Below are positions 31,131 through 64,000 of a DNA stretch of 64,000 nucleotides, in pieces (within the stretch, counting starts at the first letter, position 1; each line of letters opens with the position of its first letter). The DNA is from Euglena gracilis (Eukaryota). The stretch is from assembly GCA_039621445.1 (NCBI GenBank), contig CP154954.1:8124634-8188633 (forward strand), in the 5' to 3' direction. Position numbers and translations under genes: made by a program. The notes under the pieces were generated by a model. It worked only from the letters and a program-made list of their open reading frames with translations, did not search any database and was not told where the DNA came from.

Positions 31131-31466
31131 ATGGCCAAACGCACGGCAAACTTTGTGAATGGTCTTTTGCCACCTCCCCCTAGGACGGAACTGTTCCTGG
31201 CTGCTCTCGCGGTATACCAGCAAGATGCCAAGAAGCCGAAGGTTGACCCCCTTCATGGCACCTTGCTGGCACAGGGCAACACAAAGAAAAAGTCCGGCTC
31301 CGTGGGTGCAGAGCTTGCTGCTGTTGCCAACTGTTTGGAGTTCGCCAAACTGTGTCAACATCGGCAAGCGTCTTATCCTGAGCTGGATGATTTCTTTGTT
31401 GCCTGGACGGGATGGGAGCTGGAACCCAGCCTGTTGTTCGATGAGGCGAGCGTCATCCAACCATGA
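31131..31466 (+). CDS. Orphan element-borne protein (possibly frameshifted at the C-terminus)
   Basis: MAKRTANFVNGLLPPPPRTELFLAALAVYQQDAKKPKVDPLHG...; three homologous copies in the window, with conservative substitutions between two of them; basic NLS-like patches. Confidence 0.5.
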   Translation: MAKRTANFVNGLLPPPPRTELFLAALAVYQQDAKKPKVDPLHGTLLAQGNTKKKSGSVGAELAAVANCLEFAKLCQHRQASYPELDDFFVAWTGWELEPSLLFDEASVIQP

Positions 31467-31805
31467 GTACGGAGTACCCCTGTCAAAGCCGCCACCATTC
31501 TTTCCCGGGGGACAAAAGTCCGAACCAAAGGGTGAGGTTGCCGACAGTGCCGGTGGTGAGACCAAACACGAAGGGAAACCGTTGCGGCGTGTGCTTTTCT
31601 CTCGCACATCGGCTAAACGGCGGCGCACGACGTGTGTTATACGTTTCAATTTTCCGTTCTTATCCCTGTTAATGAACTCTCAGGGCGCCTTTGAAGCAGG
31701 ACGCAAATGAGCAACTCTCAACTCCCGACGTGAAGAAAGAGGCTGAATCCATCGGGTACTAAACTCATGTTTTTTCACTGTTCCTCTGTCATGCACCACT
31801 GACTG

Positions 31806-32396
31806 ATGACCGAGGAGGAGTTCTTTGCACCGCATGTGCCCGAACACACGCCATTTACCAGGTATTTACAAAGAAAACCACTCAAATTTTACGGTCACCA
31901 CTTCCACAGTGAGCACATGATCGCCATCAACGTTGACGAAGACTACGTCGACCTCACCCAACCATCGGCCGCCTGCCCGCCGTCCGTCACCCTGAAAACC
32001 GAGGAGGACGACGACGGCGCAGCTACGGCGCGGAACGTTGCACGGTGGTCAACTTGGGCAAATTTTTGCGCCCCACCAAGTGACGAACACGCGGTCGAAA
32101 ATCAGGACCTGACCAGTGTTCCGTCTGTCTTTCCCACCGCCGAGCAACGTTCCGCTCCTGCGGTCAGCTCTGTCTCCTCTGACCAACCCCCTGTGCCTCG
32201 TGCCGTGTCCCGACTGCCTATAAAACAGGAGAAATGTGGTTTTTGTGGTGTTGCCATTCCGAAAAATCCAAATTGTGTGGAGCTGAACAAAGTTGTCTGT
32301 GACGCCTGCGGTTTGGCATATCATTTTCATTGCCAAGATTTGCGGCGGCCACCAAAGTATGGCTCTTTTCTGTGCAAAGCCTGTCGTGTGCCGTGA
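31806..32396 (+). CDS. PHD-finger protein
   Basis: C-terminal CGFC-x-CDAC-x4-H-x2-C-x-FLCKAC (C4HC3); probable 48-nt in-frame GT-AG intron at 31862-31909; decayed upstream exon from ~31707. Confidence 0.75.
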   Translation: MTEEEFFAPHVPEHTPFTRYLQRKPLKFYGHHFHSEHMIAINVDEDYVDLTQPSAACPPSVTLKTEEDDDGAATARNVARWSTWANFCAPPSDEHAVENQDLTSVPSVFPTAEQRSAPAVSSVSSDQPPVPRAVSRLPIKQEKCGFCGVAIPKNPNCVELNKVVCDACGLAYHFHCQDLRRPPKYGSFLCKACRVP

Positions 32397-32789
32397 GTTT
32401 CGCCCCTTCCCTGCCGTCCGTTCTGCCGTCGTCTGTTCTGCCAAGGCAAACTAGCCTTCTCGTTGTCATCCTTCGTGTTGTAGAGTGCCACCCGAACCGC
32501 CTCACCCGTTGAGGACCACACGGCCTCTCAACCGCACACCGATTTTTCATGATTGCGATTTTCGTTTTTTGCGGGGGGTTGACACAGATGCCCTCACTGA
32601 AAACGTGCCTGAACCCGGATGCCCTCACTGAAAACGTGTCATTGACCCGAATGCCCTCACTGAAAACGTGCCTGAACCCGGATGCCTTCACTGAAAACGT
32701 GTCATTGACACAAATGCCCTCATTGAAAACGTGTTCATGACCACGAATTTCAGGGCAGGCATTTGGCGGGCTGAACACGTTTTTAACAA

Positions 32790-33700
32790 CTGTGTTCAGA
32801 AACGCCAGTTCGGGCGTGAAGCCGTGTTCCAGAACGCCGGTTCGGGCAGAAGAAGAAGCCGAAGGTTGACCCCCTTCATGGCACCTTGCTGGCACAGGGC
32901 AACACAAAGAAAAAGTCCGGCTCCGTAGGTGCAGAGCTTGCTGCTGTGCAGAGCTTGCTGCTGTTGCCAGCCGTTTGGAGTTCGCCAAACTGTGTCAACA
33001 TCGACAAGCCTCTTATCCTGAGCTGGATGCTTTCTTTGTTGCCTGGACGGGATGGGCCCAGCCTGTTGTTCGATGAGGCGAGTGTCAATCGAACAATGTG
33101 TGGCTCAACGTGAGCAGCAGTCGGGAACTTTGTTCATTTCAGGGAACCGTTCCCGACTGCCTATAAAACAGGAGAAATGTGGTTTTTGTGCTGTTGCCAT
33201 TCCCAAAAATCCAAATTGTGTGGAGCTGAACAAAGTTGTCTGTGACGCCTGCGGTCTGGCATATCATTTTCATTGCCAAGATTTGCGGCGGCCACCAAAG
33301 TATGGCTCTTTTTTGTGTAAAGCATGTCGTGTGCCGTGATGTCCGCCACTCCCTGTCGTTGTGCTCCAAGGCAATCTAGCCTTCTGTCGTGTTGTAGAGT
33401 GCCCCCGACCCGCCTCACCCGTTGAGGACCACTCTCAACCGCACGCCGATTTTTCATGACAGCGATTTTTGCTTCTTGCTCGAGGTTGCCACAGATGCCC
33501 TAATGGAAAACGTGCCTGAACACAGATGCCTTAATGGAAAACGTGTCATTGCCACAGATGCCTTAATGGAAAACGTAAAACGTGCCTGAACACAGATGCC
33601 TTAATGGAAAACGTGTCATTGCCGCAAATGCCCTCATTGAAAATGTGTTCATGACCACGAATTTCAGGGCAGGCATTTGGCGGGCTGAACACGTTTTTAA
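32790..33700 (+). pseudogene. Internally deleted tandem copy of the orphan-ORF/PHD cassette
   Basis: Left-flank motif cagaacgccggttcgggc fused to the middle of the orphan ORF (32850-33085), PHD finger copy (33150-33339), tandem array, and right inverted repeat ending at TTAA 33697-33700. Confidence 0.8.
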
Positions 33701-41726: not shown

Positions 41727-42202
41727 CATACATCTCTCTAAGGTTTTGCGAACCCCCCGGGGGGGGGGGGGCGGCTGCAGCCAGCCCCGATTTGGGCCCA
41801 GCCCAGCCGCAGCAGCACCCCCCCCCTGGGGGGGGTGCTGCTAGCCCAGCTAGCCAGCCCCTTTTTTGGGGGTCCAGCCCAAAATTTTTCGGCGCGAAGC
41901 GCCGAAATTTTTTGAAAAACTGTGTTTAAAAGTGGCCAAAAATGGGGTTTGGGGGGCGTTTGGGGCATTTTTGGGGGGTTTCAGATGCATCACTTTTTTC
42001 AAAACTGTGTTCTGCAGGTCATTTTTGGGCATTTTTCCGATTTCAGTCCAGCTCGCCCCGGTTCGGGACCAGCCGGGACCCAGCCCCCCCCCCCCCCCCC
42101 CGGGGGGGGGCGGGCTAGCCAGCCCAAATTTCTAGCCAGCCCAAATTTCTAGCCCTAGCCCCGCCCCCCCCCCCCCCCCCGGGGTCCTTAAAGAGATGTA
42201 TG
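41727..42202. mobile_element. hAT-like MITE with perfect 8-bp TSD (copy 1)
   Basis: gtcaatga|catacatctctctaagg...ccttaaagagatgtatg|gtcaatga; second copy at 54615-55137. Confidence 0.9.
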
Positions 42203-46843: not shown

Positions 46844-47846
46844 CAGGCCATTGTTTAAGGGTTCGCAGTACCCCCTTGGGGGGGGGGGGGCTGGACTGCA
46901 GTCCAAATTTGGCTAGTGTAATGGTCTCCAGGGGGGGAGTCCGCTAGCAGGGCCAGCTAGTGGAAAAATTTTCCTCCAGAAGCACCGGATTTTTTTTATT
47001 CACAAAACTTGCCAAAAAATGCCCATTGTTGTCATTGTTGGATTTTTGGAACAAAATCAGCCAAAAAACATGTTTATAACCTCATTTTCACCTCGGCAGC
47101 GCCGGAGAATTTTTTTTCCAGTTGGGGGGACGCCCCAGACTGGGGGAGGAAGTCTATTTTTTCCAGTGTCTAACAAAATGGCTACAGTGCGGCTAAAAAT
47201 TACGGAAGACAGAAATTTTGGCAAAATACCCAAACTTTGCCATAATTTTTTTTCTCGTAATTTTCTCACTCCGTCGGTTTCCGACGCCCTCTTCCAGTCC
47301 ACTTCTGGTTTGTGCTCAAAAGAACACAATACTCATCCCAATTGAATGCCAGTTTCTTCAATGGTATATGCTCAGCCAGCTCCTTGAAAAACGGGCGACC
47401 GGCATCAAGCACCTAGGGAAAATCACAGCAAAAATCGGTCTGCATTAAAAATCACTGACACCTGATCAGTGGGCACAATTCTATCAGAATTTGCAGCGAA
47501 CGGCCACCATTCTGCTTTCGCCAGCGAATATTTTGCCCATGCCTGACCGATCTTGAACGTTCCCCCATTTTTTTGGCAAGTGTTGCTGGGCGGGTACGTG
47601 CGACAACACCTCGAGCGATTGCAGCCACTGGGGGACAGAAAAATACGTTGAACACGCAACCAGGAGAAAAATGTCGCTCACCTGTGCCGGAGGTTAATCC
47701 TTCGTGGGGACCAGATTTTGCCAAAATTAATTTTTCCAAAATAAAAAATTTGCCAAATTTTTTTTCCCGTAATTTTTTTTGCCGTAATTTTTGTCTTCCG
47801 TAATTTTTAGCCACACTGTACCCTGGGGTCTTTAAGCAATGGCCTG
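46844..47846. mobile_element. hAT-like MITE, CAG...CTG termini, perfect 8-bp TSD
   Basis: atgggaag|caggccattgtttaag...tttaagcaatggcctg|atgggaag; related to 53209-53629. Confidence 0.9.
47185..47818. mobile_element. Tc1/mariner-like non-autonomous element nested in the hAT-like MITE
   Basis: ta|cagtgcggctaaaaattacggaagaca...tgtcttccgtaatttttagccacactg|ta. Confidence 0.85.
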
Positions 47847-49178
47847 ATGGGAAGGCAACTGGTCTGGGAGGAGCCTGGTCACCTGGATCATAGATCATTT
47901 AACGCCGTGTGACCCCCGGGGGGGGTTCGCGTGTGTGGGCAGGGCGTAGCTTAAGAAAATTTGACCCTCTGGGGGGTCCAGCCAGCCAGCAGCCTTTTTC
48001 CAGCCCGGGACCCCCTCCCTTTCCCCCCCTCAACGAGATTTATTTCCAAGCACCCTTCGGTGGCTGGACGGCAACAGATTTTTCGCTTTTGTGGGTCAAA
48101 AATGGACAACAAATGGGTCAAAAATGGGCGAAGATGGGTCAGATTTGGCTGTCCAGGACATTTTTGGGGTCAAAAAGTCGATTTTTTTATAGCTGGCAGT
48201 TTTTAGGACATTTTTTTTTTCATTTTCGATTTTTTTAGTTCCTGGTTCGACCCCTGGTCGGGCCCAGTTCCAGCCCAGGGGGGAGGGGGGTCAGCCAGCT
48301 GCCTTTTTCCAGCCAGCCCAGATTTTCCAGCCTCTGAGGTGGACCCCCCATAAAAAAGCACCCTGGTTGGAGGCCTCTGGACCCCCCCCCCCCAGGGGGG
48401 TGCGCCATGGGTCAAATTTGGCCGATTTTTTTTTCAGCGTTTTTGGCTGATTTAGGCTGGATTTCGGACCTCCCCTAAGGATTTCCCTCAGTCCTAAGGG
48501 ACACTAAATCAATTTTTTTTTGCCGATACAATGTCCCATGCTTTTCGCTCCGGGTGGACCACTTTCGGTTTGTTACCAATGGGGTTCGGCCAAAACGCAT
48601 TGATTTCTTGAGCTATTTCATCCTGAGAGACCAAAGTGACCCCTCCGCCCCGTGGAGGAGGAAGCTGGGTTTTGAAAAGTGACGTTTTTTTTTGAAAGGG
48701 AAATTAACCCCCCCGCTTCCCCCCGGTAAGCAATGCTTTGCAGAGGGTGCCTCCTCCACATGTGGTTCTCCATACTACATGGCCCGGGGGATTTGCAAGG
48801 AGGGATGAGCACCGGGAACTCCATCAAACAAAATCCCAGGTTTCCTCAGCCCCAATGCACACACCTCTCAGAACTGATCATGTCCCCCAGCACACCCAGC
48901 AACAAGGTTGCCTCTGGCATATTTTGAAGATGGTGCCAAAGGAAATCAGTGTTACGAATTGAATGAGTGGAATCTCGGCTGGGTGCTCTCTCTGGTGGAA
49001 AGTCCTTGGGGGGAGGAGCTGTGTGGCATTGTTGAAGCTGTGGCCAGGCTTCACGGGGAACAGAATGAAGGGGCTGAAAAGCAGGCACAAAAATGGATGG
49101 CAGCATCCTGCACAAGGGTTCTTTGCGGACATTTCGGATTGTGCATTGAGGTTGCCATTTTTTTTGGCCCCTGAAGCA

Positions 49179-52100
49179 ACCTTAGGAAGCGACGCTGCCC
49201 CTGCCAATGAAGATGAACGCCGGCTGGCCCAGCTGGGGTACAAGCAGGAGTACACCCGCATCTTCAACACATGGACCAACTTCGGGCTCACCACCAGCAT
49301 GGTCAGCGTTCTGCTGGGCATCGTGCCCTTGTACACTTATTCGCTCCAGACTGGAGGTGTGTCCTCTCTTCCATCGCTCTCAAGCCCCCCCCCCCCCAAC
49401 GTGCCCAACAAACACCTTGTTCGGGCCCCAGCTGTTGTCAGGTGCGTTGCTGGGTGAGGATGGGGCTGTGGGGGTGAAAGCCACTGCCTCTTGGGCTGGT
49501 GCACTCATTTAGCACCTGTGTGAACCCCTCCCCAAGGGGGGTTTCAAGAATGGGTGGGTGGGTTGGGGCTGCTGGACCCCCCCCCCCCTCCCTGGGGGGC
49601 ACCATGGGTCACATTTTGGCCCGGCCGAAGGCCAGGCCAGAGAATTTTTTCAAGGCCCATTTTCCGGCCGATTTTGGCTTGGTATTGGGTGGGTGGGTGG
49701 TTGACCCCCACTGGGGGGGGGGGGCATGCGGGTTTGGACCCATGGAAGAATGGAAACCCCCCGGTCATTAAGCGAATCTGGCTGGAACCCAAAGCGAGCG
49801 AACCTTTCAGCGCGAATAATTGGAAGGGAGCTGAATAATGGATCAATTTTCAGCCCTTTTTTTTGCAAAATCCCCCCAGGTGATTGGATCCGGTTTAGTG
49901 ATCGGCTGCAGGTGAGGGGGGGTGGAAAAAAAAACGAAAGACGTTGAGTGCATATTTGGCAGTTGTTTTTTTTTTTTTATGCTTCTTTTTTGATTTTAGC
50001 GTATTTTAAAAAAACAAAAAAAAAAACGCCTATGAGGTTTTGCATGGAAAATTTTGTGAATGCATATTTTCAATCATTTTTGGCATCTTCTGGGATCTTT
50101 TCTGCCAAAATTTTCTTTCCACTAAAATGAAAAAGGCAATTTTTTTTGCCTTTTTGGATGTTCATTCAAAGTTTGGTTTGCTGAGGTTTGATGTTTCTTC
50201 ACAACGAGTTTTTTCACAACGAGTTTTTTCAAATGAGATTTCCTTTTTTTATTTCCTTTTTTTGTTTTTTTTTGGCGTTTTTTTTCAAAAGAAATACGGT
50301 GTTTTTTTAAAAACATGGTTTTTCTCAAAAAGAATTTGCAAAGTCCCAAGCATGATTGAGTGTTAATGACTGACTGGTTTTCTGGTGAAAAAAAGTGAGT
50401 GGCTGGTGTTTGAAGAGTGGACGTAGCCCCGCTCCCCCTGGGAGTTGGTAAATAATTGTATGACCCTGAAAGGGTTTCCTTATTTCTGAACTGGCAGGTA
50501 TTTTGGCAATTAACCGGGGCATTTTCACAAGGTACTTTGGGCAGTTTTAAATTTGCCCGAGATGGGGTCTGTCTGGTCGGTCGGTCTGGTGCGTTGGATT
50601 GAAGTACCTGCCCAGACACTCGAGGGCACTCTGAGACCGCCCCTCGGTGCAGAAGGGATGGGAAGCTTTTTTTTCGTCTTAAGGACCACCCTTTGAGGAC
50701 CGCCCTTGGGCCCAAGGGATGGCCAATGGCGAATCCGGGGATCGAACGGAGGCAAAAATCAAAAATAATTCAAAAGGTCGAAAAACGCGTTTTTTGCCGT
50801 TTTGGATGGATGGGCGATGGTTCAAGGATGCCCCTTCATTGCCAAAATACGGCTATTTTTTCGTCCATTTTTTTCACTGTGCTGGGACGGGAAGTTCTTT
50901 TTTTTTTTCAAGGACTGCCCTGCCCCCCCCCCTCTTGGTTCCCGGACTTGCCCCCATTGGCACAATTGCACAAATCGTTTTTTTTTTTTGAAGATTGCCA
51001 CATCCCAAAATCCGAACAATATCATTATGACTGGCGCCCAAGTCAAGCAGTCATTCCCCAAGCATTCCGGGCACAGGCCATGCGTGTGTGTTCCGGGACT
51101 ACCCAGCAACGACCATCAAACGGAAAGTTGCAGGAAAGATTCTGAGAAGGAGACCGAGCTGTGCGAGTCATGGCCAGTCCCCCCCCCCCAGGACCCCCCC
51201 ACATCCCTCCCCCCCAGGACCCCTCCCCCCCAGGACCCCCCCAGGCCCCCCCCCCAGGACCCACCCGGGGGCGGTACCCACAGGACCCACTGACTGTGGA
51301 GTTCCGGGCGCCTTCGGCGCCTGCTACCGGGGGGGGGGGCTACCGCCCCCCCCCGGACCCCCCCCTGTCTTCAAAATAGCCTCACCTTGTGGTGCAAAAT
51401 TTTTGCCAAGTGTTGCGGGACCCCCCAGGACCCCCAGGACAGGGTACTGCGGGGGGAAACTGACCATAAGTGAGCTGTGCACCATGCTGCCCATTTTGAA
51501 ACTCGTTGGACCTGGGCTGATTTTGGTCAACCCCAGCACCATTTCATTTTTTGCTCATTTCATTTTTTGCTCAGATGTTTTTTTTAAAAAAATCAAAAAA
51601 TATAAATAGCACATTTTATTGGAGAATCTGAACCAATTGAACCCGAAACAGTATTAAAAAGAGAGAGGGTTCATGTGATATTCAACCCGGTTTGGAATTG
51701 CACAAATTGCAGTTTTGGAAGGTTTTTTTTGAATTTTTAAAGATCTGCCCAAATGTGTCCCCCAAGTCTTTTGGCCCCCAATTTCACATCCCAGAGTGTA
51801 TTACGGAAGTTGGCTGATTTTTGGACAGAATGCTTCCTGGCTCAAGTACACTCAGCCACCTGGTGTTGCCCCCTCACCTTGTGGTGCTCTTTCCCAACAG
51901 GACCGGCCGTGATGCTCTGGAGTTGGGTCGTGATCGGTGTAATGGCCAAATCATTGCTTGGCTCCGCCACTGTGCTCACACTCACAAACAACAGTTGATG
52001 CCCAGAAATGTGAGGGAGTCATTTTGGGCTGTTTATCCCAATCACTGTAGATCGCAACACACATTTGATTGTGGAAATGACTTTGACTTCGAAGAATTCG

Positions 52101-55100
52101 CATTTTCACCGCCTTTTTAAAAAAAAGATTTTGTCCATTTTTGCTTGTTTGTTTTATGTGTTCAATCAGTTGACATTTTCGAAATCAGCAGTTTCCAACA
52201 CGTGTAAGTTGAAATGGATGGATTTTTGTCCATCCTAGAATTCAAGTTTTAATTGATTGATTGATTAATTTTAAGGTTTGTTTGTTGGTGGTTTTTTTGT
52301 TTGCAGAACACACATTTTTTGAAGGAAGATTACCCATCACCTCGCGGGGGGGGGGGGGGGGTTGTGGGCAGGTTTGAAGGGAGGGCATTTTTTCCCCTCG
52401 AGGGATGGGTGATAATTTTTATAAACCAGGCTGATTTTTGGCCATTCATAGTCTTTCTCACGTCACAAATGTATCCAATGAATCTTGTTTTTCATTTGCT
52501 TTGTGCACGATTCACAAATTCCAGGGGGGTTATACAATTGGGATCCCCCAAAAACGTACCAAAACGAAGTCGAAAACTCAAATGATTAATTCGGGGCAGG
52601 CTGGATCAGGCTTGATTTAATAAATTTTTACAGTGCTGTGGGGTGGCTGCTGGCCCCCCCGCGGCGGGGGGTGGCTGATTTGAGTTCCGTGTCGAGGCAA
52701 TCCAGGCAAATTTCTTTTGCCCCCCCCCCCATGTCCAACGACCAGTAATCCCACCACTGGGGGGGGGGTTGTTAGACACGGGGTCCAAGAAAATGCATAT
52801 AGGTTGGTGAAACCTCCGAAAAGGTGTCCTCGACAGGGGGGGGGTCGTTAGACATGGGGGGGGCAGGTCGTGGACGTGGGGGTAATGACCATTTTCGGGA
52901 AACGCATTTTTGACCCCAGCTCACACAAGGTCGTTGTGGTATTTTCCGCCAACTCCGCCACAACAAGCAATGGCATGGCCAGGACACTGTTCGTGGTTTC
53001 CTCACTGGCTGAGATCTGCGCTGCGTATCCCACAACCAGGGTATCATGGGGATCTGGAACAACCTTCAGGATGGAGGAGGGCTCGACCCCTCCGTGGTGG
53101 GTGGGGGGCCGCCCTCTGCTCGCAAAGTGTAATGTTCCTGCATTCCATTGCTTTCAGTGCTGGTGATCAGAAATGGATGGATTTCAAGGAACAAGTGACT
53201 GGCTGATTCAGGCATTTGCTTAAGGGATTGCAGTACCCCCCCCCCCCCCCCGGGGGGGCTGGACTGCAGCTAGTCCAAATTTGGCTAGTGGGTTTTCTAG
53301 CAGACCCCCCCCCCCGGGGGGGTCTGCTAGCAGGGCTAGCTAGTGGAAAAATTTTTTCCAGTAACCGGCGCGAAGCGCCGAAAATTTTTTTTGGGACCCC
53401 CAAATATGGCCAAAAATGCCCGTTTTTGGCCATTTTTGGAAATTTTTGGAACAAAATCAGCCAAAAACCTATTAAAAACCTCATTTTTCCTCCGGCGCGT
53501 AGCGCCGGAGGAAAATTTTTTTCCAGTCCGGGGGAGGGGGGGGTCTAGCTAGTCCACTTTTTCCAGTGTCTAGCCGATTGGCTAGCCAGTCCCCCCCCCC
53601 CCCCCCGGGGGTCCTTAAGCAAAAGCCTGGGCTGATTCTTTTGAACGTGGGCGGTGCCCGTCGTAAAGGTTTGGTCCCCCCCCCCCAACCTTGCCATGCA
53701 GCCCTGCCCGCAATGGGAGCACTGTATTTCTGGGCTTACCGCTTAGGCGGCCCCGAGTGGGGTCCAGGATATTTTTTTTTGCTTTGATTGCACGCTGGTG
53801 TATCCCGGTATCCGCGCACGCTGTTATATCCAACCATTTTGATGCACAAATTACGCACAAGCAAGGCCTACCACCCGCCCACCCTTCCACACACACACCA
53901 CCCACACCCACGGCACATGCATGTTCACACACCCGTTTTCTTTCCACATCTCTTCATAAGTGATCATGAGTTCCAGCCTTTTTTTTTAGTTTTTGGATTG
54001 AATCCTTTTTTTTTGAGAAAACAATCCTGTTGTGCCCCTTCTCCGCTTGGACCGCCGGATGGTGTAATTTGCTAGGGCAGATTGGGGGTGTCGCCAGTGG
54101 CGGCTATTCCGGCGCTGTGGTCATCGGCGAAATTGTGCAAATCACAACCGGCATTGCAATGAATCCAGCCCAGACTTTGGGGATTTACGCCGCACCCAAG
54201 CCTCTTTTTTTAAAAAAAATATTCGTTTTTATTGCATTCAAAGTGTAGCATTATTTATGCCCCAAAATTTTCAGTACACTGAAAACAAGGCCCAATTAAT
54301 TGCTAAACAAATTAACCCCCTCAATAAGTGCACAATGGCTTTATAAGTGCGCACCCCCAAGGGTCCGAAACCACCTCCCTAACAAGTGCGCACCCCCCCC
54401 CCCAAAGGAGAAATTACTGCCACATCTCAGGTCAGAAAGCACACACAATTCTCAGAATTGTCCTTCTCAGATCAAACATTTCTACCGCCCAAGCCGAAAT
54501 TGGAAACACAATCACTCTTAGGTGGCCGGATTCGCATTTAAGCTTTTTTGTGTTGGTTTGCGCATTTCCGCAAATTACCAAACTTTTTTATTTCGGCTGT
54601 GTGGCTCTGGGGGGCATACATCTCTCTAAGGTTTTGCGAACCCCCCCCCGGGGGGGGGCGGCTGCAGCCAGCCCCGATTTGGGCCCAGCCCAGCCGCAGT
54701 CAGGGATGGGATTTTTTTTTTAAGTTAAGGACCGCCCCTTAAGGACCGCAGCACCCCCCCCCAGGGGGGGGGGGCGGTGCTGCTAGCCCAGCTAGCCAGC
54801 CCCTTTTTGGGGGGTCCAGCCCAAAATTTTTCGGCGCAAAGCGCCGAAATTTTTTGAAAAACTGTGTTCAAAAGTGGCCAAAAATGGGGTTTGGGGGGCG
54901 TTTGGGGCATTTTTGGGGGGTTTCAGATGCATCATTTTTTCAAAACTGTGTTTTGCAGGTCATTTTGGGGCATTTTTCTGATTTCAGTCCAGCTCGCCCC
55001 GGTTCGGGTCCAGCCGGGGTCCAGCCCCCCCCCCCCGGGGGGGGGGGGGGCGGGCTAGCCAGCCCAAATTTCTAGCCAGCCCAAATTTCTAGCCCTAGCC

Positions 55101-58100
55101 CAGCAACCGCCCCCCGGGGTCCTTAAAGAGATGTATGCTGGGGGTCTGAAAACACAGAACAAGAGAGTGCAAAAAATGAACGAAATTCTGTTTTTGGCGG
55201 TGTGACCCCTGGGACTTTGGTGAGAAATGGTGTTTTTGGGCGTCCAGAAATGGGCTCCGCACGTCGAAACCCGCGGGACCCCCCCCCATGGGAGTGAAAA
55301 AAACGCAAAACAGCAACACAGGAATGGGACCTTTACTGATGTTGTTGTTCCTATCCAGGCAAGGACAGGACCAAGGACAGCCACCAGAGCCCACCGGATC
55401 CCACCGGATCTGCAGATTCGGTGACCATTGGTACAGATTTGGTAAGATCTGGTAACAAAACCAGATGATTTGGGCCAAAAACACCTGAAAATGACCAAAT
55501 TCACTCAGAATGCTTGTTCATTGCAATTTTATAATCGATGGGCGCTTTTGCAGATGTTTTTCTCTCATTCAGTCATTTTTGGTTGTGCCTGATTCTTGCC
55601 ACGTGGTGCGATGCACGCGGTGCTGGCAGGGATTTTTTTTTCGGCGCCGACAAGTATATCCCAACCCCCCCCCCCCTCTGGGGGGATCCCCCCTGGGGGG
55701 CTCGGCCAGACCCACCCACCCTCCCCCCCCCTCCCCCCGGATTCCAAGTTTTAAAAACCCCCTGGGTGCCGCACGCGGTGTGAAACACGCGGTGCGGAAG
55801 CCACCCACCCACCCCCTGGGGGGGGGTCAGGGGACCCTTGTCTCGTAATGATTGAATATTTGTGTGCGAAAGGACATTGTGCAAGTGGTTAACGATTGTA
55901 TCACCTTGCTACTGAGCTAAAATGCAATAAACCAATAAAAAAACAACAGACAAGCAAAAAATCCAGACGAAAGCAAGGCATTTGAAATCCAGTAAAGTGT
56001 TGGAAGAATTACAGAAAATTTCTGCAGGAGGCAATATGCAATGGTCCGTTTGACAATTTTACGAAGCCAGAGGTTCGATGCGTCGCTTTCAGGCCAACGT
56101 TTGTCTAGGGAAGATATTTCCTCAAAGTTGTTCTTCTCTTTCCGAAGAGACATCATCCACTTCCCATCCACCATTTGATCAATGATGCGCATTAATGGTT
56201 TCAACTTGGGAGAAGGGCATGTCTCCGCAATGCTTTTTTTTTTTGAACCCCCAAGGCTCCTGCCACAAACGCCGGCACAGAATTGAAAATCTTGTGGTGT
56301 GAGCAGCCCCCACTCCCCACCCCCTCCCCATTCCTTGTTTTTCCCACGGTGCCGATTGTTAGGTGAAGGTGTTCTTTCGATGCCGAAGAATTCCCCCCCC
56401 CCCATGAGGTGGATCGGGGGAGTGTCCCCCACTTCCTGGTGGGTGTGGGTTGAACCCACAGCCATGCCAACGTTGGTTGACCCGTCCACCCTCTTGGTGA
56501 CAGTGCTCATTGAAACGGGTGGGGACGCTAGTGCAGGGGGGGGGGAATGCAACTTGCATAATTTGCATTTTTTTTTGCATAATCAGGTTTTCCCGAAATT
56601 TGCATTTTTTTTTTGCATTTTTTTGCATTTTTTTTGCAAAAAATATTTTGCCCTGGAAATTTTTTTGTAGTTGGTTGCCGTATGTTTGGATTTTTTGCAT
56701 TTTTTTTGCATTTTTTACATAAAATATTTTGCCCTTGAAAAAAATTTTGTAGTTGGTTGGCATATGTTTGGATTTTTTTGCATTTTTTGTGTTTTTTTTG
56801 CATAAAATATTTTGCCCTGGAAATTTTTTTTGATTTTAGGCAGCAAAGCTCTGTCATATTCCAGCTTTTTCTCAAGGTTTTCATGCAAGTTGCATTTTTT
56901 TGCATTTTTTTGCATTTTTTTGCATTTGCATTTTTTTGACTTGCATAATTTGAAGGGCCAAGTTGCATTCCCCCCCCCCCCTGGCTAGTGGGAGGGGAAT
57001 ACCCTCTTATCTCAATTGGATGGGGAACCGGCGGGGAAAGGAGTTGCTTGGCGCGGACCCTTGTGGTGGCTGGGGTGGTCAACACCCTCTCCGACACGAT
57101 GCTCACGGGCAGGCAGCTTTTTCGCCAGAGGTAGGTGGGCCACAGGACCAAAGGTTCATAGGTTCATTCAACACCTGTGGTGACCCTCCGGGGGGGATGG
57201 GTAGGTTTTTGAGATTGGGTGGGTGGGTTGGGACCGCTGGACCCCCCCCCCCCCCAGGGGAAGGGGTGTCCTGTGCCATGGGTCAGATTTTGGCCCGGCC
57301 AAAGACCAGGCCCAACAAATTTTCGGGGGCTTTTCAACCGATTTTGGCTGGATTTTGGGTGGGTGGGTCAATGGTTGACCCCCCCCCCCTGGGGGGTTGT
57401 GGGTGGGGGGTTTTTGAAAACAGTGGGTGGGCGGGTTTGGGCCCAGGGTCCCTCGCGGGGGGGGGTCACCAAATGAATCCATGAATCTGACCCTCCAGAT
57501 TCAATGACACCATTGGGCAAAAATTGCCTGTGTGCAGGACTGTGCTACATCTCGGTGGTGTGGCACCTCGTGGGCTGCATCTTGATCATTGCGCTCATGA
57601 ACTGCTATGCTCCGACCCACAAGTCGGTGTCGTATGTGTTGACAGAGTACAACAATTCTACTGGTTTCACACCCAAGCAGCAACTTCATTGGCTCCAAAA
57701 CCGGCCTTTGCTTGAGAACTCCATTGGGGTCCACTCCAAGGGGGTCCATTGTCTGATATGTGATTTGCTTTGCATTTTGAAGGTTTTTTGTTGCAATGTC
57801 ACAAGCACAAGCAACACGCACCTTGGAAATCAAATGTGGGAAATGGGTTCAATGTCAAAATGCATTCCCAAATCCCAAATTGCGAATTACATATGAAATT
57901 GATGAGCTTGGTCATAGGTGGACATTTCAGAATTCTCTTCACATACTGGAGTCATACTCATGTTATTCTCACAAAATATTGATTTGTTTTCTATTAAAGT
58001 TATCCGAACAGGTTTTGTCACCAGACACAATTTTTTTGAAGTGTTTCTGCTTGTGTCCATCAAATATTTATGTTGGGCTTATTGGCTTGCTTGCTGCCTC

Positions 58101-61100
58101 CACCACATTCACGGGCTACGACACAGCCTCTCACGTAGCAGAGGAAACTCACAACTCTCATAACTCTACCCAGGACATTGGACGTTTTTGAAGGTGATGA
58201 CAACCATGAAACAACGCAGCTGTGCTCGTTCTACATTTATTTACAATTGCCTTTTATTCATAAGTTATTTTATTTTTACGAGATGTACATTATGATTTTT
58301 TTTATTTATATCACAAGTTAATACATCTGTTGTATTATTTTTAATTGAATTTCGCAACAGGATGCCCAGCAAGGGGACTTGCAGGATTTGCTTTTTTACA
58401 ACCTTTTCAACAACCAACAAATCTTTGTGCTCCCGGGTGCCTGCCCATTGCAGGCACACCCTCCAGGGAGGAATCAATTTGAAGGCACCGCCGCCAAATT
58501 GTGTCATAGCACTGCCCCTCCCCACTTGCCTTCCCAAAGCATCCCCCAGCAGTGCACAGGGCGGTCCCGTAAAGGACCGCCCTTTGAGGACCGCCCTTGG
58601 GGACGGCCAATGGCTTCTCCAGGCGTCGGACAGGGTCGGAAATAAAAAAAAAGGTCAGAAAAAACACATTTTCTGCCGTCTTGGGTGGATGGGCGAAGGT
58701 CCAGGTGCGCCAGAAATAATTGTTCCCCCAAAATCGACCCATTTTTACCAAAATATGCCATTTTCTGCACCATTTTTTTGTGCATTTTCCATTGAAGATG
58801 CTGGGACGGAATTGTTTGTTCAACGACTGCGCTGGGGGTGCCACCTTCCTTCTGGTTTGCAGAGCATTTTTCTGAAAGATTTTTAAGCCATAATGGTAAA
58901 ATGATGAATGCATTCATGATTTCAAGATTTGATGGTAACCACGCGGATGTCGAAAGTGGATGTTGTCCCCATTGCAGACTGGGTGGTCAACTGGTTCCCA
59001 ACAGGGGTTTTCTTAGTATAGGACCCCCGGGCCCGGGGGGGGGGGAGGTAGGCAGGGGGGGGAAATATGCACGGTACTTTGCAGTTTTCATATTTTGGGT
59101 TTGCGCGTTTTCAGTTTTTTTTGCATTTTTGAGCTTTTTTTGCAGTTTTTTTTTGATTCTAGTTTTGAGGAAACCTGAGGTGTCTATTTTTTTGTGCTGG
59201 ATTATATGTTTGAAGGGTGTTTCTCAAGAAAAAGCATCACCTGTTCATGAGTTGTGTTGTGTGCAGTTATCCCACCAATTGTCTTGCCCCCAACTGTCTC
59301 GCAAATTCCCAGGTTGTAGACCATTTGGCAATCCCTTAAGAACAATGTTCAAAGTTTGTGGTGGTTGTTGTAGATTTTTTTCATTGTGACATGGGGAAAC
59401 TTCACCAGGTGATGGACCGAAAGTTCCAAATCGAACATCCCCGGCAAGAAATGAAGCATTTTCCCCATATTTGGAAAGGAAACCGTTTGGCATCTTTATG
59501 GGCGTGATCGGTACAAGTTTTGGTGCAGGAAAACCGGTGTGACCCGGCATCCAAACACATGATTTCAGTGCATTTCAGTGCATAAAAATAAAACCATGTA
59601 CAGTGCACCTTGATTGATTGCTTCCATTTTTTGTTGTCATCGGCTCCAAAGCAGTGCAAAAAAGAAGTTAGGTGAATTGGGGTGTGCTCGTGTGGTCGCA
59701 ATTTACGTTGTTTTGCATATGCACACCATTTCAGCTTGTTTATTGTTATTTTTTTTTGTTGAAGTGCAGTTTTTTTTGCAGTTTTTTTTGCAGTTTTTTG
59801 CAGTGCAGTTTTTGACCAGCCCCGTGCAGTGCAGTTTCTCCCCCCCCCCCCCGGGGGGGTAGGGTGGGTGGGTCTGGCCGAGCCCCCCCCCCCATCAGGG
59901 GGTCCCCCCAGAGAGGCCCAGGGGGGTCCCCCCAGGGGGGGAGTGGGATATACTTTTCGGCGCCAAAGGCGCCGAAAATTTTTGAAAATGTGCTATTTGG
60001 CATTTTTTTGTGAGTTTTTAGCCTTTTTCGGGAAAGTGAGTGGGTCCCCCGGGACCCCCCCCCCTTGGGAGGCGCCTCTTAAAAAAAAAACCCCCTTTGG
60101 GAACCGACCCCCCTCCCATCCAGCACAGATGATGGCACAGATCCAACTAACAGCTAACTGGGGGCCCCTTCCTAAGCGATCCTGTTTGACCCCACCCCAA
60201 AGTCCAAACCCCTCCACACACCCGAAATATCAACTAATTTGACGTTTAAGAATCCAACTGTCCAACAAAGGTTTCAAAAACTTCATTCACTCACGTTTTG
60301 AGCACATTTTACAACGATCCAATTGCAAGTTTTTTGTCTATGTTAGAACCCCCCCCCCTGAAGTTGTTGGTCCAAGAAAATTCAGACGATTCAGTTCCCG
60401 GGGGGGGGGTCTGAACCCCCCCTTCCCCACTCTTAGGCAGCCGAATTCACACTTAAGCTTTTTTGTGTTCCTGCACCACCATACAGATGAACACAAAAAA
60501 ATTATTTTGGTGTGTGGCCCTGGGTGCGTTGAAGACACGAGGGCAAAAAATGAACAAATTCCTGTTTTGGGGGGAACAGGGACCCGGGGGCTTTGTAAAA
60601 AAAAAAGGCAATGCACGCCTTAGCGCCCATGCACAAAGAAAAAACCCTTAAGTGCGAATTCGGCCGCCTGAGCCACTGCTGGCCTCCGTTCCATTCCCAG
60701 TGATCCACCCCCGTTGCGGAATCCTGGAAAAGGGAATCCTGGCAACCACCAGATTGCCGAACTCCAACCGTTCTGTTCCACCCCCCTTGCCATGATCGGT
60801 TCGGTGATCAACTGCCTTGTACTGGACAGGCTTCTCTTAAGCCCCACCATGTGATGTGCAGCCGCTCAGGAAACTGTTGTGTACACAGTACGCCACCAGA
60901 AAAGTTTTTTTGATTACCCCCCCCCCCTAGTCGTACGACCACCCCTCATCTATGACCACCCCCCGGTCACAGGTTGCAGGTCATGGGGGTGTTATGACCA
61001 CCCCCCCCCGGTCACAGGTTGCAGGTTGCGAAAAAATTTAACCCCCCAAAATAAGTCCCCCCCCTGGCCGGTCCGAGCAAAAATCCATGAAATGGACCCC

Positions 61101-63388
61101 CCCAAAATAAGGTCCCCCCTGCCGGCGCGAAGCGCCGGATTTTTGAAAAATGGGACATTTTGGGGGGGTAAAAAATGCCATTTTGGGACAGTTTTCACAC
61201 ACACCTACGACCGCCCCCTCATCTATGACCACCCCCCGGTCACAGGTTGCAGGTTAGGGGGGTGTTATGACCACCCCCCCCGGTCACAGGTTGCAGGAAC
61301 CCGGTCATACGACTAGGGGGGGGGGGTAGGTGCCCTGGTGCCATGTTTTGCTGAGAATTGTTTCTCTTTGCTTCTGCCACAGGGTTTTTTGCATCATCTA
61401 CGTCATACATCAGTTTTCAGGGCCCAGGGGCTGATTGCTGGGGGGCTGGGTGAGAAATTTGGACCGCTGGCAACCTGGGGATGGAACCCCTGGCCACTGC
61501 GCTAAAACAAGCACAGAGCAGCATCGTCTTGTATTCTGATTTCGGAATTGTTTGGGTCTTTTGCTTTTTTTCTTCGATTTTCGGGTAGTTTCTCCCCTTT
61601 TGGCACACCGTACACACAACCCTGTGACAAAGGTAGATTCCAGCTGTGCTTGCCTTTCTGTCAGTTACCCCGCCGGGATCGTTCCAGGTGGGGCTGCACT
61701 CAGCGGAACGGAAGCCTGGGGGCCGGGGGTCATCTTCATCCTGGGCCTGAACTTCGCCATCCAGGATATGGAGCAGGGCGTCCGTCGCTTGTGTCGAAGG
61801 CCCCCCAGCCCCAGGGCCGGGATCAATAGGACTTGGCCAGTGGTTAATGGGTTTGCAGAAGGAGGGGGGGCTGAGAAAAATGGGGTGGGCAGTGACACAC
61901 CCTCTGCCATGGAGGACCAGGCAGCGTGACAGATGAACCACGCCATTATGCCCCAAGCAGCAGCCATTGAAGTTGTGGGGAAAAGCCTGCGGAGGGAAAC
62001 TGGCTGTGTCGTGTTGTGTATGTGTGGGTGTGCTGGACCAATGCACACAAGGGGAGGATGCCCGGGATCAAGGAGGGGGGCTGCCTTTTTTTTTCAGTTC
62101 GGTTGACCCCCGGGGAGGTGCCGCGCCAGCAGACTGCTTTTTTTGTAATTGGCAGTTTTTTTTTTGCTTGTTTGTGCGGGAGATGTTTGGCCCTGGGTTG
62201 AGCTCAGTTCCAGCTGGGGGACTCCCAGGGTTGGGGATTGTTATGCCCCCCCCCCCCGCCAGGCATTACATTAAACCCTACTGGGGAGAGGAGGGGGTCC
62301 AGCCAGCAGCTTTTTCAGCCTACCCCCCAGGGGTCAGGGGTCGGCAAGCGACACCCTGGTGCAGATGACCTCACGAATTCGGACAACGCGGTGGGCGCTG
62401 CCAGCACCCTCTGGGTCTCCCTCATGGGGGTCCCCCTCGCCGTGCTGTGCAACGTCATCACGTTTGTGGCCATCGAGTGCAGTAATTGTGCCAACCTTAC
62501 TTCTGCCGCTCGCATGGTGTGCGGTCGATGCATTGTTGTGTTTTTCCCAGTCAGCTTTTATGATTGCAGTTCTGGTGATGAAAGCATGTCGAACCACGAA
62601 GTTGGATCACGTCCGGGGCAGAGGGAAAAGCTGGCATCCTTTTGGCCAGCGACTGGGAAGGCAAATGTTTGCTATTGGCAAATTGTTGCCAACTGGCAGG
62701 ATGGGCCAGCTCGCCCTGGTGCATCCACTGTTTTTGCAGTTTATTTTTTGCTTTTTTTTGCTCCAGGCAGCTGTTCTGTGCGCGCAGGTCTGTTTTCCCC
62801 AGCTCCGCTGTCCCGGTTCTGTTACACGTCAATCGGGGGACGGGTCCCCGTCCGGGCCAGCTTTTCCATCCCCCTTTCTGGCCTCGCAACGACATGCTCG
62901 GCGCGCTGTTTGCCAGGCATGTGCTGCTTTGGGTCCTCGCCTGCTGTTTTGTGCCATGTGGCAGTTTTTGTTTTTTTTGCTTTCGGGCTGTGTCTGCCGC
63001 TCATTTTTTCCGCGATGTGCCGCTGGCTTCTAGTCAACCTGATCATAACGCATAACAATGATTGAACTTTTGCACTGACGACATGTGTATGTATATATAT
63101 TGGACAGATATATATGTATGGAAGAATGCTGGCTGCTCTGGGGGCAGCATTTTTCCAGATTGCTTGCAAATCTTTGTTTTTCAGTTCCAGTCAGAAATTA
63201 GCCCTTTGCAAAGTCGCCGTGTTCTTTGCGCTGGAGCCCAGTCCTCGTTGGCCTCCTACATCATCGCCATCTTTCTGCGAATCACGGTGAGCCGCCCAGA
63301 GGTTTCTTTTCCGGTAATGTTCAGTCGGAAGAGGAGGCAAAGAAACCCCTGGAGCGGGCACACGTTCGTACCAGCTGAGTTCAACCTC
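49179..63388 (+). CDS. APC-superfamily amino-acid permease (ACT family, GABA/choline permease or BAT1-like); multi-exon, incomplete at both ends
   Basis: Phase-consistent exons ~49179-49356, 51901-51943, 52983-53033, 53712-53761, 54034-54193, 57056-57106, 57536-57670, 58059-58167, 60780-60823, 61725-61770, 62364-62516, poorly bounded pieces in 62780-63141, ~63234-63293 and 63357-63388 give LAQLGYKQE, GGPAVMLWSW, SLAEICAAYPTMGALYFWA, WTAGWCNLLGQ, GYDTASHVAEET, SAARM and SYIIAIFLRITVSRHTFVPAEFNL. Confidence 0.9.
49357..51900 (+). other. Conventional GT-AG intron
   Basis: gtgtgt...ctctttcccaacag; joins TG/GPAV. Confidence 0.85.
51944..52982 (+). other. Non-conventional (intermediate, AG-ending) intron
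   Basis: 5' ggccaaatcattgcttg pairs with 3' caagcaatggcatggcc; ends in AG but lacks GT. Confidence 0.75.
53034..53711 (+). other. Non-conventional intron (CAG +4, CTG -8)
   Basis: aacCAGggtatcatgg...ccatgcagccCTGcccgc; restores YPT/MGALY. Confidence 0.88.
53209..53629. mobile_element. hAT-like MITE, CAG...CTG termini, perfect 8-bp TSD, inside a non-conventional intron
   Basis: ggctgatt|caggcatttgcttaagg...ccttaagcaaaagcctg|ggctgatt. Confidence 0.92.
53762..54033 (+). other. Non-conventional (intermediate, GT-starting) intron
   Basis: gtcCAGgat...atcCTGttgt; restores EWG/PFSAW; exact junction slightly ambiguous. Confidence 0.75.
54615..55137. mobile_element. hAT-like MITE (copy 2 of 41727-42202)
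   Basis: Same CATACATCTCT/AGAGATGTATG ends; flanks ctgggggg / ctgggggt (7/8). Confidence 0.88.
55627..55764. mobile_element. Short CAG...CTG MITE with degenerate 8-bp TSD
   Basis: ggtgctgg|cagggatttt...aaaaccccctg|ggtgccgc (6/8). Confidence 0.65.
56534..56983. mobile_element. CAG...CTG MITE with ttgcattttt internal repeats and a 7-bp flanking duplication
   Basis: gctagtg|cag-Gn-aatgcaacttg...caagttgcatt-Cn-ctg|gctagtg. Confidence 0.85.
57107..57535 (+). other. Non-conventional intron (CAG +4, CTG -8)
   Basis: gggCAGgcagctttttcgcca...tgggcaaaaattgcCTGtgtgc; restores MLT/GLCY. Confidence 0.88.
57671..58058 (+). other. Non-conventional intron (CAA +4, TTG -8)
   Basis: accCAAgcagcaacttca...tgaagtgtttctgcTTGtgtcc; restores TGFT/SNIY. 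Confidence 0.85.
58168..60779 (+). other. Non-conventional intron
   Basis: accCAGgacattgga...tccaaccgttCTGttcc; restores HNS/TPLAM. Confidence 0.75.
60824..61724 (+). other. Non-conventional intron
   Basis: ggaCAGgcttc...gaagcCTGggggcc; restores CLVL/GVIF. Confidence 0.78.
60917..61326. mobile_element. MITE with TA target duplication
   Basis: ta|Cn-tagtcgtacgacc...ggtcatacgacta-Gn|ta; internal tatgaccaccccccggtcacaggttgcagg repeats. Confidence 0.85.
61771..62363 (+). other. Non-conventional intron (CAG +4, CTG -8)
   Basis: gagCAGggcgtccgtcgcttg...caagcgacaccCTGgtgca; restores IQDM/DDLT. Confidence 0.85.
63294..63356 (+). other. Minimal 63-nt non-conventional intron (CAG +4, CTG -8)
   Basis: gccCAGaggtttctt...aagaaacccCTGgagcg; restores ITVSR/HTFVP. 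Confidence 0.8.
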
Positions 63389-63750
63389 AGCCAGGGGTTG
63401 CCGCCTTGAGCGGTGAGCATTTAATCACTTAGTCACTGGCTGACCCAGCAGTGATTGGGACTGGCTTTTCAGAGTGAACGACTGGTTTCTGGCCCTAATC
63501 CCACCCCTCGGGGGTTGGGAAAAAACCACTGAAGTCACCCTGCACCGAAGGCACCAGAAAAAGTCTTTGGGTAGTTTTTTCCCCCACATTTTCGGTCATT
63601 TTCCCCTTGGATTCCAGAGTGTCTTCCAAGGAATAAAAGACTGACTGGTTTTTGGAAGAGTGGAACCCGGGGGTCAGTGATGGGAAATTGCATGGCTGTG
63701 AGTGGATGCTCTACGCTCCTGGTCCCAGAAAATTTGGAATCCTCATTTTT

Positions 63751-63865
63751 GGTTACCTGGAGCCTCCAGGGAGGCTCCCTGGAGGCTGGTTACCTGAGCC
63801 TCCCTGGAGGCTGGTTACCTGAGCCTCCCTGGTTACCCGCCTCCCTGGAGCCTCCGGCAGGTAAC
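63751..63865 (+). repeat. Short tandem repeat ggttacctgagcctccctggaggct, about 4 degenerate copies
   Basis: Direct reading; the unit contains an agcctcc/ggaggct hairpin. Confidence 0.8.
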
Positions 63866-64000
63866 CAATTTTGTACACAGGCCATGTTCGACACTCCACC
63901 TCTGCATCACAGCACCACAGCACAGAGCATGCACACCTGTCTCTTGTGACCTCAATGGCACCTGCATGGCAATTGCACCTGGACAGTTTTGCGCATTTCT

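Follow-up and report, generated by a model that had tools for sequence, protein, structure and literature searches.

Can an intron without GT-AG borders be the remains of a transposon insertion that splicing removes together with one copy of its TSD? The question is raised by a stretch of 64,000 nt of the Euglena gracilis nuclear genome (the window), in which a gene rich in nonconventional introns lies among MITEs with matching ends. The MITE origin idea and the N3/N5 code are already in print, as are the +4/-6 rule and TSD-like repeats; the background of euglenid introns and their suggested transposon origin, which the initial annotation gave as established, understates this literature. Neither the equation 3 + 5 = 8 = TSD nor the matching MITEs of Euglena were found in the article texts consulted; the junction tables belonging to PMC3935182 and PMC4770533 and the datasets of PMC12501133 could confirm the 8-nt pattern or already contain it.

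Identity and exon map of the permease gene

The gene at 48880-63388 on the + strand encodes EG_transcript_5049, an amino-acid permease of the APC family from E. gracilis, and is covered from its start codon to aa 431, with the remainder outside the window. For the exon stretch 62355-62519, this eukprot entry (P0001, 561 aa, precomputed Pfam PF13520/PF00324) is the top match (12 hits; 43 candidates), with 100% identity and 95% of the 55 aa covered. Pfam searches of six single-exon translations of the permease returned two weak AA_permease_2 hits, both below cutoff.

Fourteen blocks of exactly matching amino acids locate aa 1-344 and 406-431 on the + strand. With the 5′ junction set by the N3 rule (3 nt before the stem), the exons lie at 48880-48899, 49190-49356, 51901-51943, 52983-53033, 53712-53761, 54034-54193, 57056-57106, 57536-57670, 58059-58167, 60780-60823, 61725-61770, 62364-62519, about 63244-63293, and 63357-63388. 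The stretch 62520-63243 (+) is expected to encode aa 345-405, whose exons were not recovered intact from it by exact-word and tblastn searches. These yielded only frameshifted fragments in two frames (PLSRF at 62805-62819, HVNR at 62825-62836, PVRA at 62847-62858 and LGALF at 62897-62911), which sum to 28 nt less than the transcript. Amino-acid block searches of the same kind found no exons beyond 63388 within the window. All junctions derive from a transcriptome-derived protein and hold at the protein level, and the source transcript may represent another allele.

Intron ends and the Euglena splicing code

For each of the 12 introns mapped, all donor/acceptor pairs reproducing the protein were enumerated, giving one GT-AG intron, I2 (49357-51900), kept as a comparison case, and 11 nonconventional ones, all on the + strand. 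In 11/11 of the latter, the protein allows the 5′ junction to lie 3 nt ahead of a CAG or CAA stem. The stem termini are CAG...CTG in seven, namely I4 (53034-53711), I5 (53762-54033), I7 (57107-57535), I9 (58168-60779), I10 (60824-61724), I11 (61771-62363) and the 63-nt I13 (63294-63356). In the other four, CAA is paired with TTA across a C.A closing mismatch in I1 (48900-49189), with ATG in I3 (51944-52982) and with TTG in I6 (54194-57055) and I8 (57671-58058). The 3′ spacer is 5 nt long in 8/11 introns; I5 and I9 have one of 4 nt and I10 has one of 6 nt, so that the two spacers sum to 8 in eight introns and to 7 or 9 in three. Watson-Crick pairing over the first 12 stem positions ranges from 7 to 11, with 10/12 in I1 and 11/12 in I13, a near-perfect hairpin with an RNA fold of -35.9 kcal/mol (z = -3.9). 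The downstream exon starts with a purine in 10/11 cases, the exception being the C that follows I1. Several junction placements can be compatible with the protein, such as nine for I9 and six for I7; the latter include a GC-AG alternative (57109-57537), and in the ten other nonconventional introns none of the placements that the protein permits is GT/GC-AG. The next intron, of which the 5′ part lies at 63389-64000 (+) and the 3′ end outside the window, also opens with 3 nt and then CAG. The initial annotation, which had described permease introns without GT-AG whose stem starts at +4, is borne out for 11 introns of this one gene. It had counted nine, six of them regular and three off by one; the three off-by-one introns stand, and the total for 51944-63356 becomes ten (7 + 3).

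These features are those of ordinary euglenid nonconventional introns following the published Euglena noncanonical code, 5′-N3CDG-/-CH'GN5-6|R-3′ (Nomura et al. 2025, PMC12501133). The introns described by Milanowski et al. (2014, 2016) and Nomura et al. (2025) likewise lack GT-AG, and share with the permease introns the CAG/CTG pairing at +4..+6 and -8..-6, the strict 3-nt 5′ spacer, the 3′ spacer of 5 (4-6) nt and the direct repeats that render junctions 'slidable'. The four CAA introns fall outside the strict CDG code and within the 'complementarity maintained' rule. What is added here to the published euglenid introns is the width of the repeat, 8 positions, and the presence, in the same window, of intact MITEs whose ends match those of the introns and whose TSDs are 8 bp long. 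In PMC12501133, the spacers are called random and the main text makes no mention of TSDs.

MITEs in and around the gene

Five MITEs or MITE-like elements (no strand assigned) were found in the window. Two of them, both CAG...CTG, form family B: one at 53209-53629 is nested in I4, with a perfect 8-bp TSD, GGCTGATT, present at 53201-53208 and 53630-53637, and one at 46844-47846, which precedes the permease start codon by about 1 kb, has the perfect 8-bp TSD ATGGGAAG. Neighbouring CAG...CTG MITEs with 8-bp TSDs had indeed been announced from the letters alone. The first is 70% identical to 46844-47184 over 387 nt, and both intact elements satisfy N3-CAG, paired arms and CTG-N5-purine on the + strand. 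Family A has the termini CAT...ATG, which violate the published CDG rule, and comprises 54615-55137, nested in I6 and flanked by CTGGGGGG/CTGGGGGT (7/8), and 41727-42202, with the perfect 8-bp TSD GTCAATGA; the two are 84% identical over 531 nt. The fifth, a MITE-like CAT...CTG element at 28516-28874, has the 8-bp TSD GGGAGGGG, which is of low complexity. The TSD score is thus 8/8 in four elements and 7/8 in one.

Among 171 CA...TG inverted-repeat candidates in the window, flank identity has its mode at 1-2/8 and reaches 7-8/8 in seven; intron I13 is itself one of the 171, with flanks at 6/8. When the termini were left unconstrained, the flanks were identical 8-nt repeats in 3 of 1793 candidates, each of them a CA...TG MITE. 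The MITE terminal motif occurs five times against 0.24 expected. Matches to this motif in metagenomes (120 loci, one match each) were set aside as chance and uninformative on Euglena, a second degenerate arm being found in only six of these loci and matching 8-mers in none.

A repeat comparison within the window found no permease intron nearly identical to any multi-copy MITE, which was one of the checks proposed at the outset. The repeats that permease introns share with other parts of the window are confined to intron interiors, as for 57204-57383 in I7, 75% identical to 49539-49709. Only the arms of I3 resemble a MITE, matching MITE termini at 11/16 and 12/16 positions (null P 0.016 and 0.004); for 19 of the 22 intron arms, the comparison with MITE ends gave P of at least 0.05. 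The arm likeness of the other introns may partly reflect a shared CAGG start, which splicing itself may select. The motif CTTAAG is found both in the 5′ arm of I10 and in MITE arms.

The hAT-like nature proposed for the MITEs in the initial annotation is a candidate assignment. hAT elements produce 8-bp TSDs, and MITEs of the hAT superfamily combine such TSDs with short terminal inverted repeats, as do the MITEs of the window. Ten of the 23 ORFs with a length of 170 aa or more between 19300 and 48800 were scanned with Pfam and gave no transposase domain; the few matches, to PHD-finger and zinc domains, were weak and stayed below cutoff, and neither a hAT transposase or dimerisation domain nor a Merlin transposase was among them. 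An 8-bp TSD is moreover not specific to hAT, since other superfamilies, including Merlin, also make 8-bp duplications (PMC8101967). It is possible, if on the doubtful side, that the transposon origin is right and the superfamily is another 8-bp-duplication group such as Merlin. In PMC8101967, the DNA transposons reported for the draft genome of E. gracilis are two families of Merlin, both with 8-bp TSDs, so that both the organism and the TSD length (8-9 bp) fit the window MITEs. However, the same source gives Merlin inverted repeats a conserved terminal 5′-GG-3′, whereas all five window MITEs and all intron stems begin with CA.

Repeats at the intron junctions

The 8-mers compared consist of 5 exon and 3 intron nt at the 5′ junction and of 5 intron and 3 exon nt at the 3′ junction. 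They agree at 6/8 positions in I4 (CCCAC|AAC and CCCGC|AAT) and in I13 (GAGCC|GCC and GAGCG|GGC), letter for letter as first quoted. The other nine nonconventional introns are weaker, as had been anticipated, at 3-5/8 rather than about 2-4, among them 5/8 in I5 and I9, 4/8 in I1, I8 and I10, and 3/8 in I6, I7 and I11. The conventional I2 also scores 3/8. Pooled over the 11 introns of this one gene, 47/88 junction positions match against 26-28 expected (permutation P = 6.7e-6), with 7, 5, 3, 6, 4, 9, 5 and 8 matches of 11 at offsets -5 to +2, against 52/209 at the outer offsets -14..-6 and +3..+12 (Fisher P = 2.5e-6). The excess persists when I4 and I13 are dropped (35/72, P = 8.5e-4), when the two introns with the weakest stems are left out (39/72, P = 1.3e-4) and in the 3+5 introns alone (33/64, P = 3e-4). 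Judged from sequence, the two junction 8-mers are decayed copies of each other, with a similarity that ends exactly at 8 positions. The proposed equality of 3 + 5 with the TSD length thus holds in this gene, apart from the three introns whose spacers sum to 7 or 9. A comparison anchored on the stems gave 42/88 matches in the TSD register and 16-32 over 24 shifted registers, and it is supported that the faded repeats sit in the exact register expected of a TSD flanking the stems. The age series that the initial annotation saw in the weaker matches is set aside, because the stems are under selection for splicing and their integrity cannot date the insertions.

Repeats of this length have been seen at a newly gained intron: a strain-specific, recently gained gapC intron of E. 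agilis carries eight-nucleotide direct repeats (PMC4770533). The finders proposed the repair of a staggered double-strand break with filler DNA, in which case the repeats would be fill-in products and the hairpin ends would have been selected later. That no permease intron is recognisable as a MITE-family copy agrees with such an origin. Yet break repair predicts no constant 8-nt width abutting inverted-repeat termini, and the excess does not extend past 8 positions; nor does break repair account for multi-copy MITEs outside exons that share these termini and are flanked by perfect 8-bp duplications, or for the MITE-type arms in I3. We consider it unlikely here.

Could the two junctions instead look alike because splicing imposes a shared weak consensus on both (pyrimidine|purine, with C as third nucleotide), with no duplication at all? 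A mirrored pyrimidine|purine consensus common to both junctions is published (PMC4770533), and offsets 0 and +2 match in 9/11 and 8/11 introns. Against this, the likeness is intron-specific, because pairing a 5′ junction with the 3′ junction of another intron gives an identity of only 0.298, as reflected in the permutation P above, and offsets -5, -4 and -2 are raised too. In knock-in experiments, 50-bp synthetic introns carrying only the features of the code, and no designed repeats, were spliced (PMC12501133), so junction repeats are not needed for splicing. A pure signal effect is accordingly improbable. Reverse splicing of circular intron RNA after its excision, as a route of spread that needs no DNA transposon, is most improbable: full-length ends are reported for the circles in which nonconventional introns are released (PMC11282704), but an intron bringing its own 3+5 spacers would mismatch its new exon flanks, and exon-to-intron matches were observed at 25/55 positions on the 5-nt side and 22/33 on the 3-nt side.

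Origin of the nonconventional introns

Altogether, these results support the published, unproven idea that nonconventional introns originate from transposon insertions. In the model that we favour, a nonconventional intron would be the former insertion of a terminal-inverted-repeat DNA transposon with an 8-bp TSD. The splicing machinery would count 3 nt outwards from the stem on the 5′ side and 5 nt on the 3′ side, thereby removing the element plus one TSD copy and bringing back the pre-insertion reading frame. With the frame restored, an exon could from the outset tolerate a CAG...CTG insertion whose TSD has a purine in position 6. The 3′ spacers of 4 or 6 nt would represent later 1-nt indels, which in published knock-ins were partly or fully tolerated: the length of the 5′ spacer is strict, the 3′ spacer can gain 1 nt, and loss of 1 nt there brings splicing to about 20% (PMC12501133).

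We put at roughly 0.7 the probability that the nonconventional permease introns began as insertions with 8-bp TSDs and that splicing removes the element and one TSD. Against this reading are the 3/11 introns that deviate from the sum of 8, the 4/11 with CAA and the exon beginning with C after I1. That a MITE insertion becomes an intron immediately is plausible, because the two intact CAG...CTG MITEs meet the code and synthetic introns that do so are spliced (PMC12501133). It is a far broader proposition, with about even odds of being right, that nonconventional introns throughout the Euglena genome are the remains of one class of inverted-repeat transposons with 8-bp TSDs, that the 3+5 geometry exists for removing the element with its TSD, and that the CAG...CTG MITE families are present-day introners. 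In that case, insertions into exons would have no effect from the moment they occur, provided that the sixth TSD position is a purine. More daring would be the corollary that the enzyme of excision evolved together with the transposon machinery or was derived from it, and that the excised circle recreates the intact 8-nt target.

Transposon-derived introners have reportedly been described in Micromonas and Aureococcus, by Huff et al. in 2016. The permease introns display terminal inverted repeats and a TSD-like border repeat, as expected of introners; within the window, however, no permease intron as a whole matched a repeat family. In Amoebophrya, direct repeats also overlap the intron borders, the introners have no internal transposase and hairpins join the exon ends (PMC7789003), as in the permease gene. 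Differences are apparent as well: the Amoebophrya repeats span 3-5 nt and the splice position varies relative to the hairpin, whereas the Euglena repeats have a width of 8 and fixed cuts. The introners of Micromonas and Aureococcus carry canonical splice motifs (PMC7789003), unlike those of Euglena.

Implications

Nonconventional introns reportedly make up 71.8% of all introns in E. agilis (PMC12501133). If the spacers are the halves of an 8-bp TSD, a single cause would explain their strict lengths, and the mirrored pyrimidine|purine consensus and the many 'slidable' junctions would share it; the 8-nt repeat of the newly gained intron would follow as well. The idea yields sharp predictions, testable genome-wide on the assemblies already available for E. 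gracilis and E. agilis and in the established knock-in assay. Were it true, Euglena would be an introner system that tolerates transposon insertions by means of a second, non-GT-AG splicing route.

Gene structure and intron borders

The window comes from the Euglena gracilis nuclear genome and carries a + strand gene for an amino-acid permease. The translated exon 62355-62519 matches the eukprot protein EG_transcript_5049 (P0001, 561 aa; precomputed Pfam domains PF13520 and PF00324) with 100% identity over 95% of 55 residues; this is the top one of 12 matches among 43 candidates, and three paralogues rank next, at 83-88% identity. Exact-word mapping of the protein onto the six frames gave 14 colinear blocks within 48880-63388, which cover residues 1-344 and 406-431 with zero mismatches, and the gene extends past the window end. 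Residues 345-405 are represented by four short fragments in two frames within 62520-63243, which together lack 28 nt of the length that the transcript requires: the corresponding exon or exons are frameshifted and shortened, all other mapped exons being identical to the transcript. This interval, excluded from the intron count, could be a degenerate or pseudo-exon in this copy or a misassembly, or the transcript could stem from another allele.

For each of the 12 gaps between adjacent blocks, all donor/acceptor pairs whose in-silico splicing gives the protein were listed. The sole GT-AG intron is the second, I2 (49357-51900), which shows a pyrimidine tract; of six protein-compatible options for I7, one is GC-AG, and the remaining ten introns have no GT/GC-AG placement compatible with the protein. 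Two readings of I7 are possible, nonconventional (57107-57535, with 3- and 5-nt spacers) and GC-AG (57109-57537), which makes it an "intermediate" type in the literature's sense. Inverted-repeat ends are found in all 11 non-GT-AG introns. Their stems run from CAG to CTG in seven cases and from CAA to TTG, ATG or TTA in four, with Watson-Crick pairs at 7-11 of the first 12 positions; the RNA of the 63-nt I13 (63294-63356) folds into an almost perfect hairpin (-35.9 kcal/mol, z = -3.9). A 5' junction fixed 3 nt ahead of the stem is protein-compatible in 11/11. With this placement, eight introns have a 3' spacer of 5 nt, while it measures 4 nt in I5 and I9 and 6 nt in I10. In 10/11, the first base of the following exon is a purine. 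The initial annotation had counted at least nine such introns, six regular and three off by one, in agreement with the ten (seven plus three) mapped in the same range (51944-63356).

Pairing of +4..+6 with -8..-6 has been described for nonconventional introns (PMC4770533), and a code, 5'-N3CDG-/-CH'GN5-6|R-3', has been defined experimentally (PMC12501133). The permease introns match this anatomy, and the locus belongs, as an ordinary case, to an intron class already known.

An 8-nt repeat across the intron junctions

The 8-mer at each 5' junction (5 exon and 3 intron nt) was compared with that at the 3' junction (5 intron and 3 exon nt). The two 6/8 pairs already noted, in I4 (53034-53711) and I13, are both exact, and the other nine introns match at 3-5/8. 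Altogether, 47/88 positions match, against 26-28 expected from a control in which each 5' junction was paired with the 3' junction of another intron (rate 0.298; permutation P = 6.7e-6). Most telling is the per-offset profile: from -5 to +2, matches number 7, 5, 3, 6, 4, 9, 5 and 8 of 11, compared with 52/209 (25%) over the nine offsets before and ten after (Fisher P = 2.5e-6). Leaving out the two best introns preserves the excess (35/72, P = 8.5e-4), as does leaving out the two having imperfect closing pairs (39/72, P = 1.3e-4) or keeping just the eight introns with 3- and 5-nt spacers (33/64, P = 3e-4). Anchoring on the stem, which aligns I5 and I9 as 3+5 when they are really 3+4, gives 42/88, against 16-32 in 24 shifted registers. 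Codon usage cannot yield the match since every comparison sets exon against intron, and a common junction consensus is excluded by the inter-intron control. The observation is confirmed, and for this one gene the statistics are solid.

Knock-in experiments indicate that the 5' spacer length is strict, that a 3' spacer longer by 1 nt still works and that one shorter by 1 nt lowers splicing to about 20%; fully synthetic introns carrying only the code features are spliced (PMC12501133). The junction repeats are therefore history and no requirement. A mirrored pyrimidine|purine consensus, published for both junctions (PMC4770533), is expected from two copies of one target site, and the 69.1% of nonconventional introns reported as "slidable" (PMC12501133) also fits a duplicated target site.

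A candidate transposon origin

Each nonconventional intron probably began when an element bounded by terminal inverted repeats inserted and created an 8-bp target-site duplication (TSD). Cuts placed 3 nt upstream and 5 nt downstream of the stem would remove the element with one TSD copy, a loss that would restore the reading frame. Given the tolerance of the 3' spacer in knock-ins, 4- or 6-nt spacers could have arisen by later 1-nt indels with the exon junction unmoved. That an exonic insertion would be an intron at once is consistent with the published experiments. Behind this proposal stand an anatomy that conforms to the code, a junction repeat of 8 positions and neighbouring MITEs (small non-coding transposons) with identical end geometry.

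A scan of 18500-64000 for CA...TG termini with at least 13/16 complementary positions gave 171 candidates, with a mode of flanking 8-mer identity at 1-2/8 (100/171); I13 itself was recovered at 6/8. Seven candidates reach 7-8/8, of which five were accepted: a MITE-like element (28516-28874), two family A MITEs with CAT...ATG ends (41727-42202, and 54615-55137 inside I6; 84% identity over 531 nt) and two family B MITEs with CAG...CTG ends (46844-47846, and 53209-53629 inside I4; 70% identity over 387 nt). One of the others belongs to a long palindrome, and 60450-60654 lies within a larger inverted repeat. With terminal bases unconstrained, exact 8-nt flanking repeats occur in 3/1793 candidates, all three being among these CA...TG MITEs. 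The MITEs are multi-copy, and the family B terminal motif occurs five times against 0.24 expected. On the + strand, both intact CAG...CTG MITEs fit the whole published code, from the 3-nt spacer and CAG through the paired arms to CTG, a 5-nt spacer and a purine.

Copies of the motif GGCTGATT, often with TTTGG after them, lie around the first permease introns (51515, 51812, 52429, 52672, 53201 and 53630). This motif is also the TSD of MITE 53209-53629, which holds an inverted copy at 53455, and may be either a preferred target or a piece of some older repeat. Long poly-C/poly-G palindromes are common to the MITE interiors, as is a short GC hairpin (CGGCGC...GCGCCG) with an A/T run behind it (53236-53322, 53365-53390, 53485-53510, 54641-54660, 54835-54850, 59955-59975 and 61128-61145), a pattern suggestive of a single large superfamily whose nested elements fill the long introns.

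The initial annotation had read the introns as CAG...CTG transposons plus one 8-bp TSD, an interpretation that finds partial support. The profile at -5..+2 supports transposon-type 8-nt scars, but no intron is demonstrably a MITE copy in the window: self-comparison gave no whole-intron match to repeats elsewhere, common repeats being nested elements in intron interiors. At its two ends, I3 agrees with MITE arms in 11/16 and 12/16 positions (P = 0.016 and 0.004 against 5065 random CA-start sites), and the best match averaged over all 22 intron arms is 8.6/16, above a null mean of 7.0. Part of this excess reflects a common CAGG start, which splicing may itself select, and I3 alone is therefore treated as a lead. 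A scan of 10 of the 23 long ORFs in the non-genic part yielded no transposase domain, and the label "hAT-like" therefore derives solely from the 8-bp duplication. Merlin elements reported in E. gracilis (PMC8101967) likewise have 8-bp TSDs, but end in 5'-GG, whereas all ends here are CA.

Other repeats in the window

A satellite of about 17.5 kb (1129-18671; units of 34, 78, 112 and 190 nt) with constant GC skew throughout is flanked by two 52-nt-repeat arrays (636-1080 and 18882-19136) that are mutual reverse complements. Long nested inverted repeats at 29680-32890 (arms near 29680-30000, 30680-31270 and 32760-32890) may be a larger mobile element; the ORF 31803-32393 has a weak PHD-finger match, below cutoff. 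The interior of I10 holds a 414-nt element (60915-61328) bounded by perfect 21-nt inverted repeats, with an internal 93-nt direct repeat (60934-61025 / 61206-61297, 94.6% identity) and no 8-nt flank repeat at its ends as defined. In the last intron fragment, short repeats both inverted and direct, with units GGTTACCTG and GAGCCTCCCTGGAGGCT, cluster at 63749-63870.

Relation to published work

The MITE-origin hypothesis (PMC3935182) and "TSD-like sequences" at junctions (PMC11282704) are already in print, and eight-nucleotide direct repeats are reported for a recently gained, strain-specific gapC intron and attributed by the authors to break repair (PMC4770533). The N3/N5-6 code is in print as well, in a 2025 paper that considers MITEs a possible source (PMC12501133); its main text describes the spacers as random and has zero occurrences of "TSD", "target site duplication" or "hAT". 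Full-text searches, with supplementary tables (which might hold relevant data) outside their scope, found in print neither the statement that N3 plus N5 equals an 8-bp TSD, nor a measurement of junction-repeat width, nor a Euglena MITE family with CAG...CTG ends. Beyond euglenids, the closest system is the introner elements of Amoebophrya, described as having inverted repeats and 3-5-nt direct repeats across their borders. The value of the present finding lies in a compact connection of TSD length with the splicing code, apparently not published before, by which the question of intron origin becomes directly testable.
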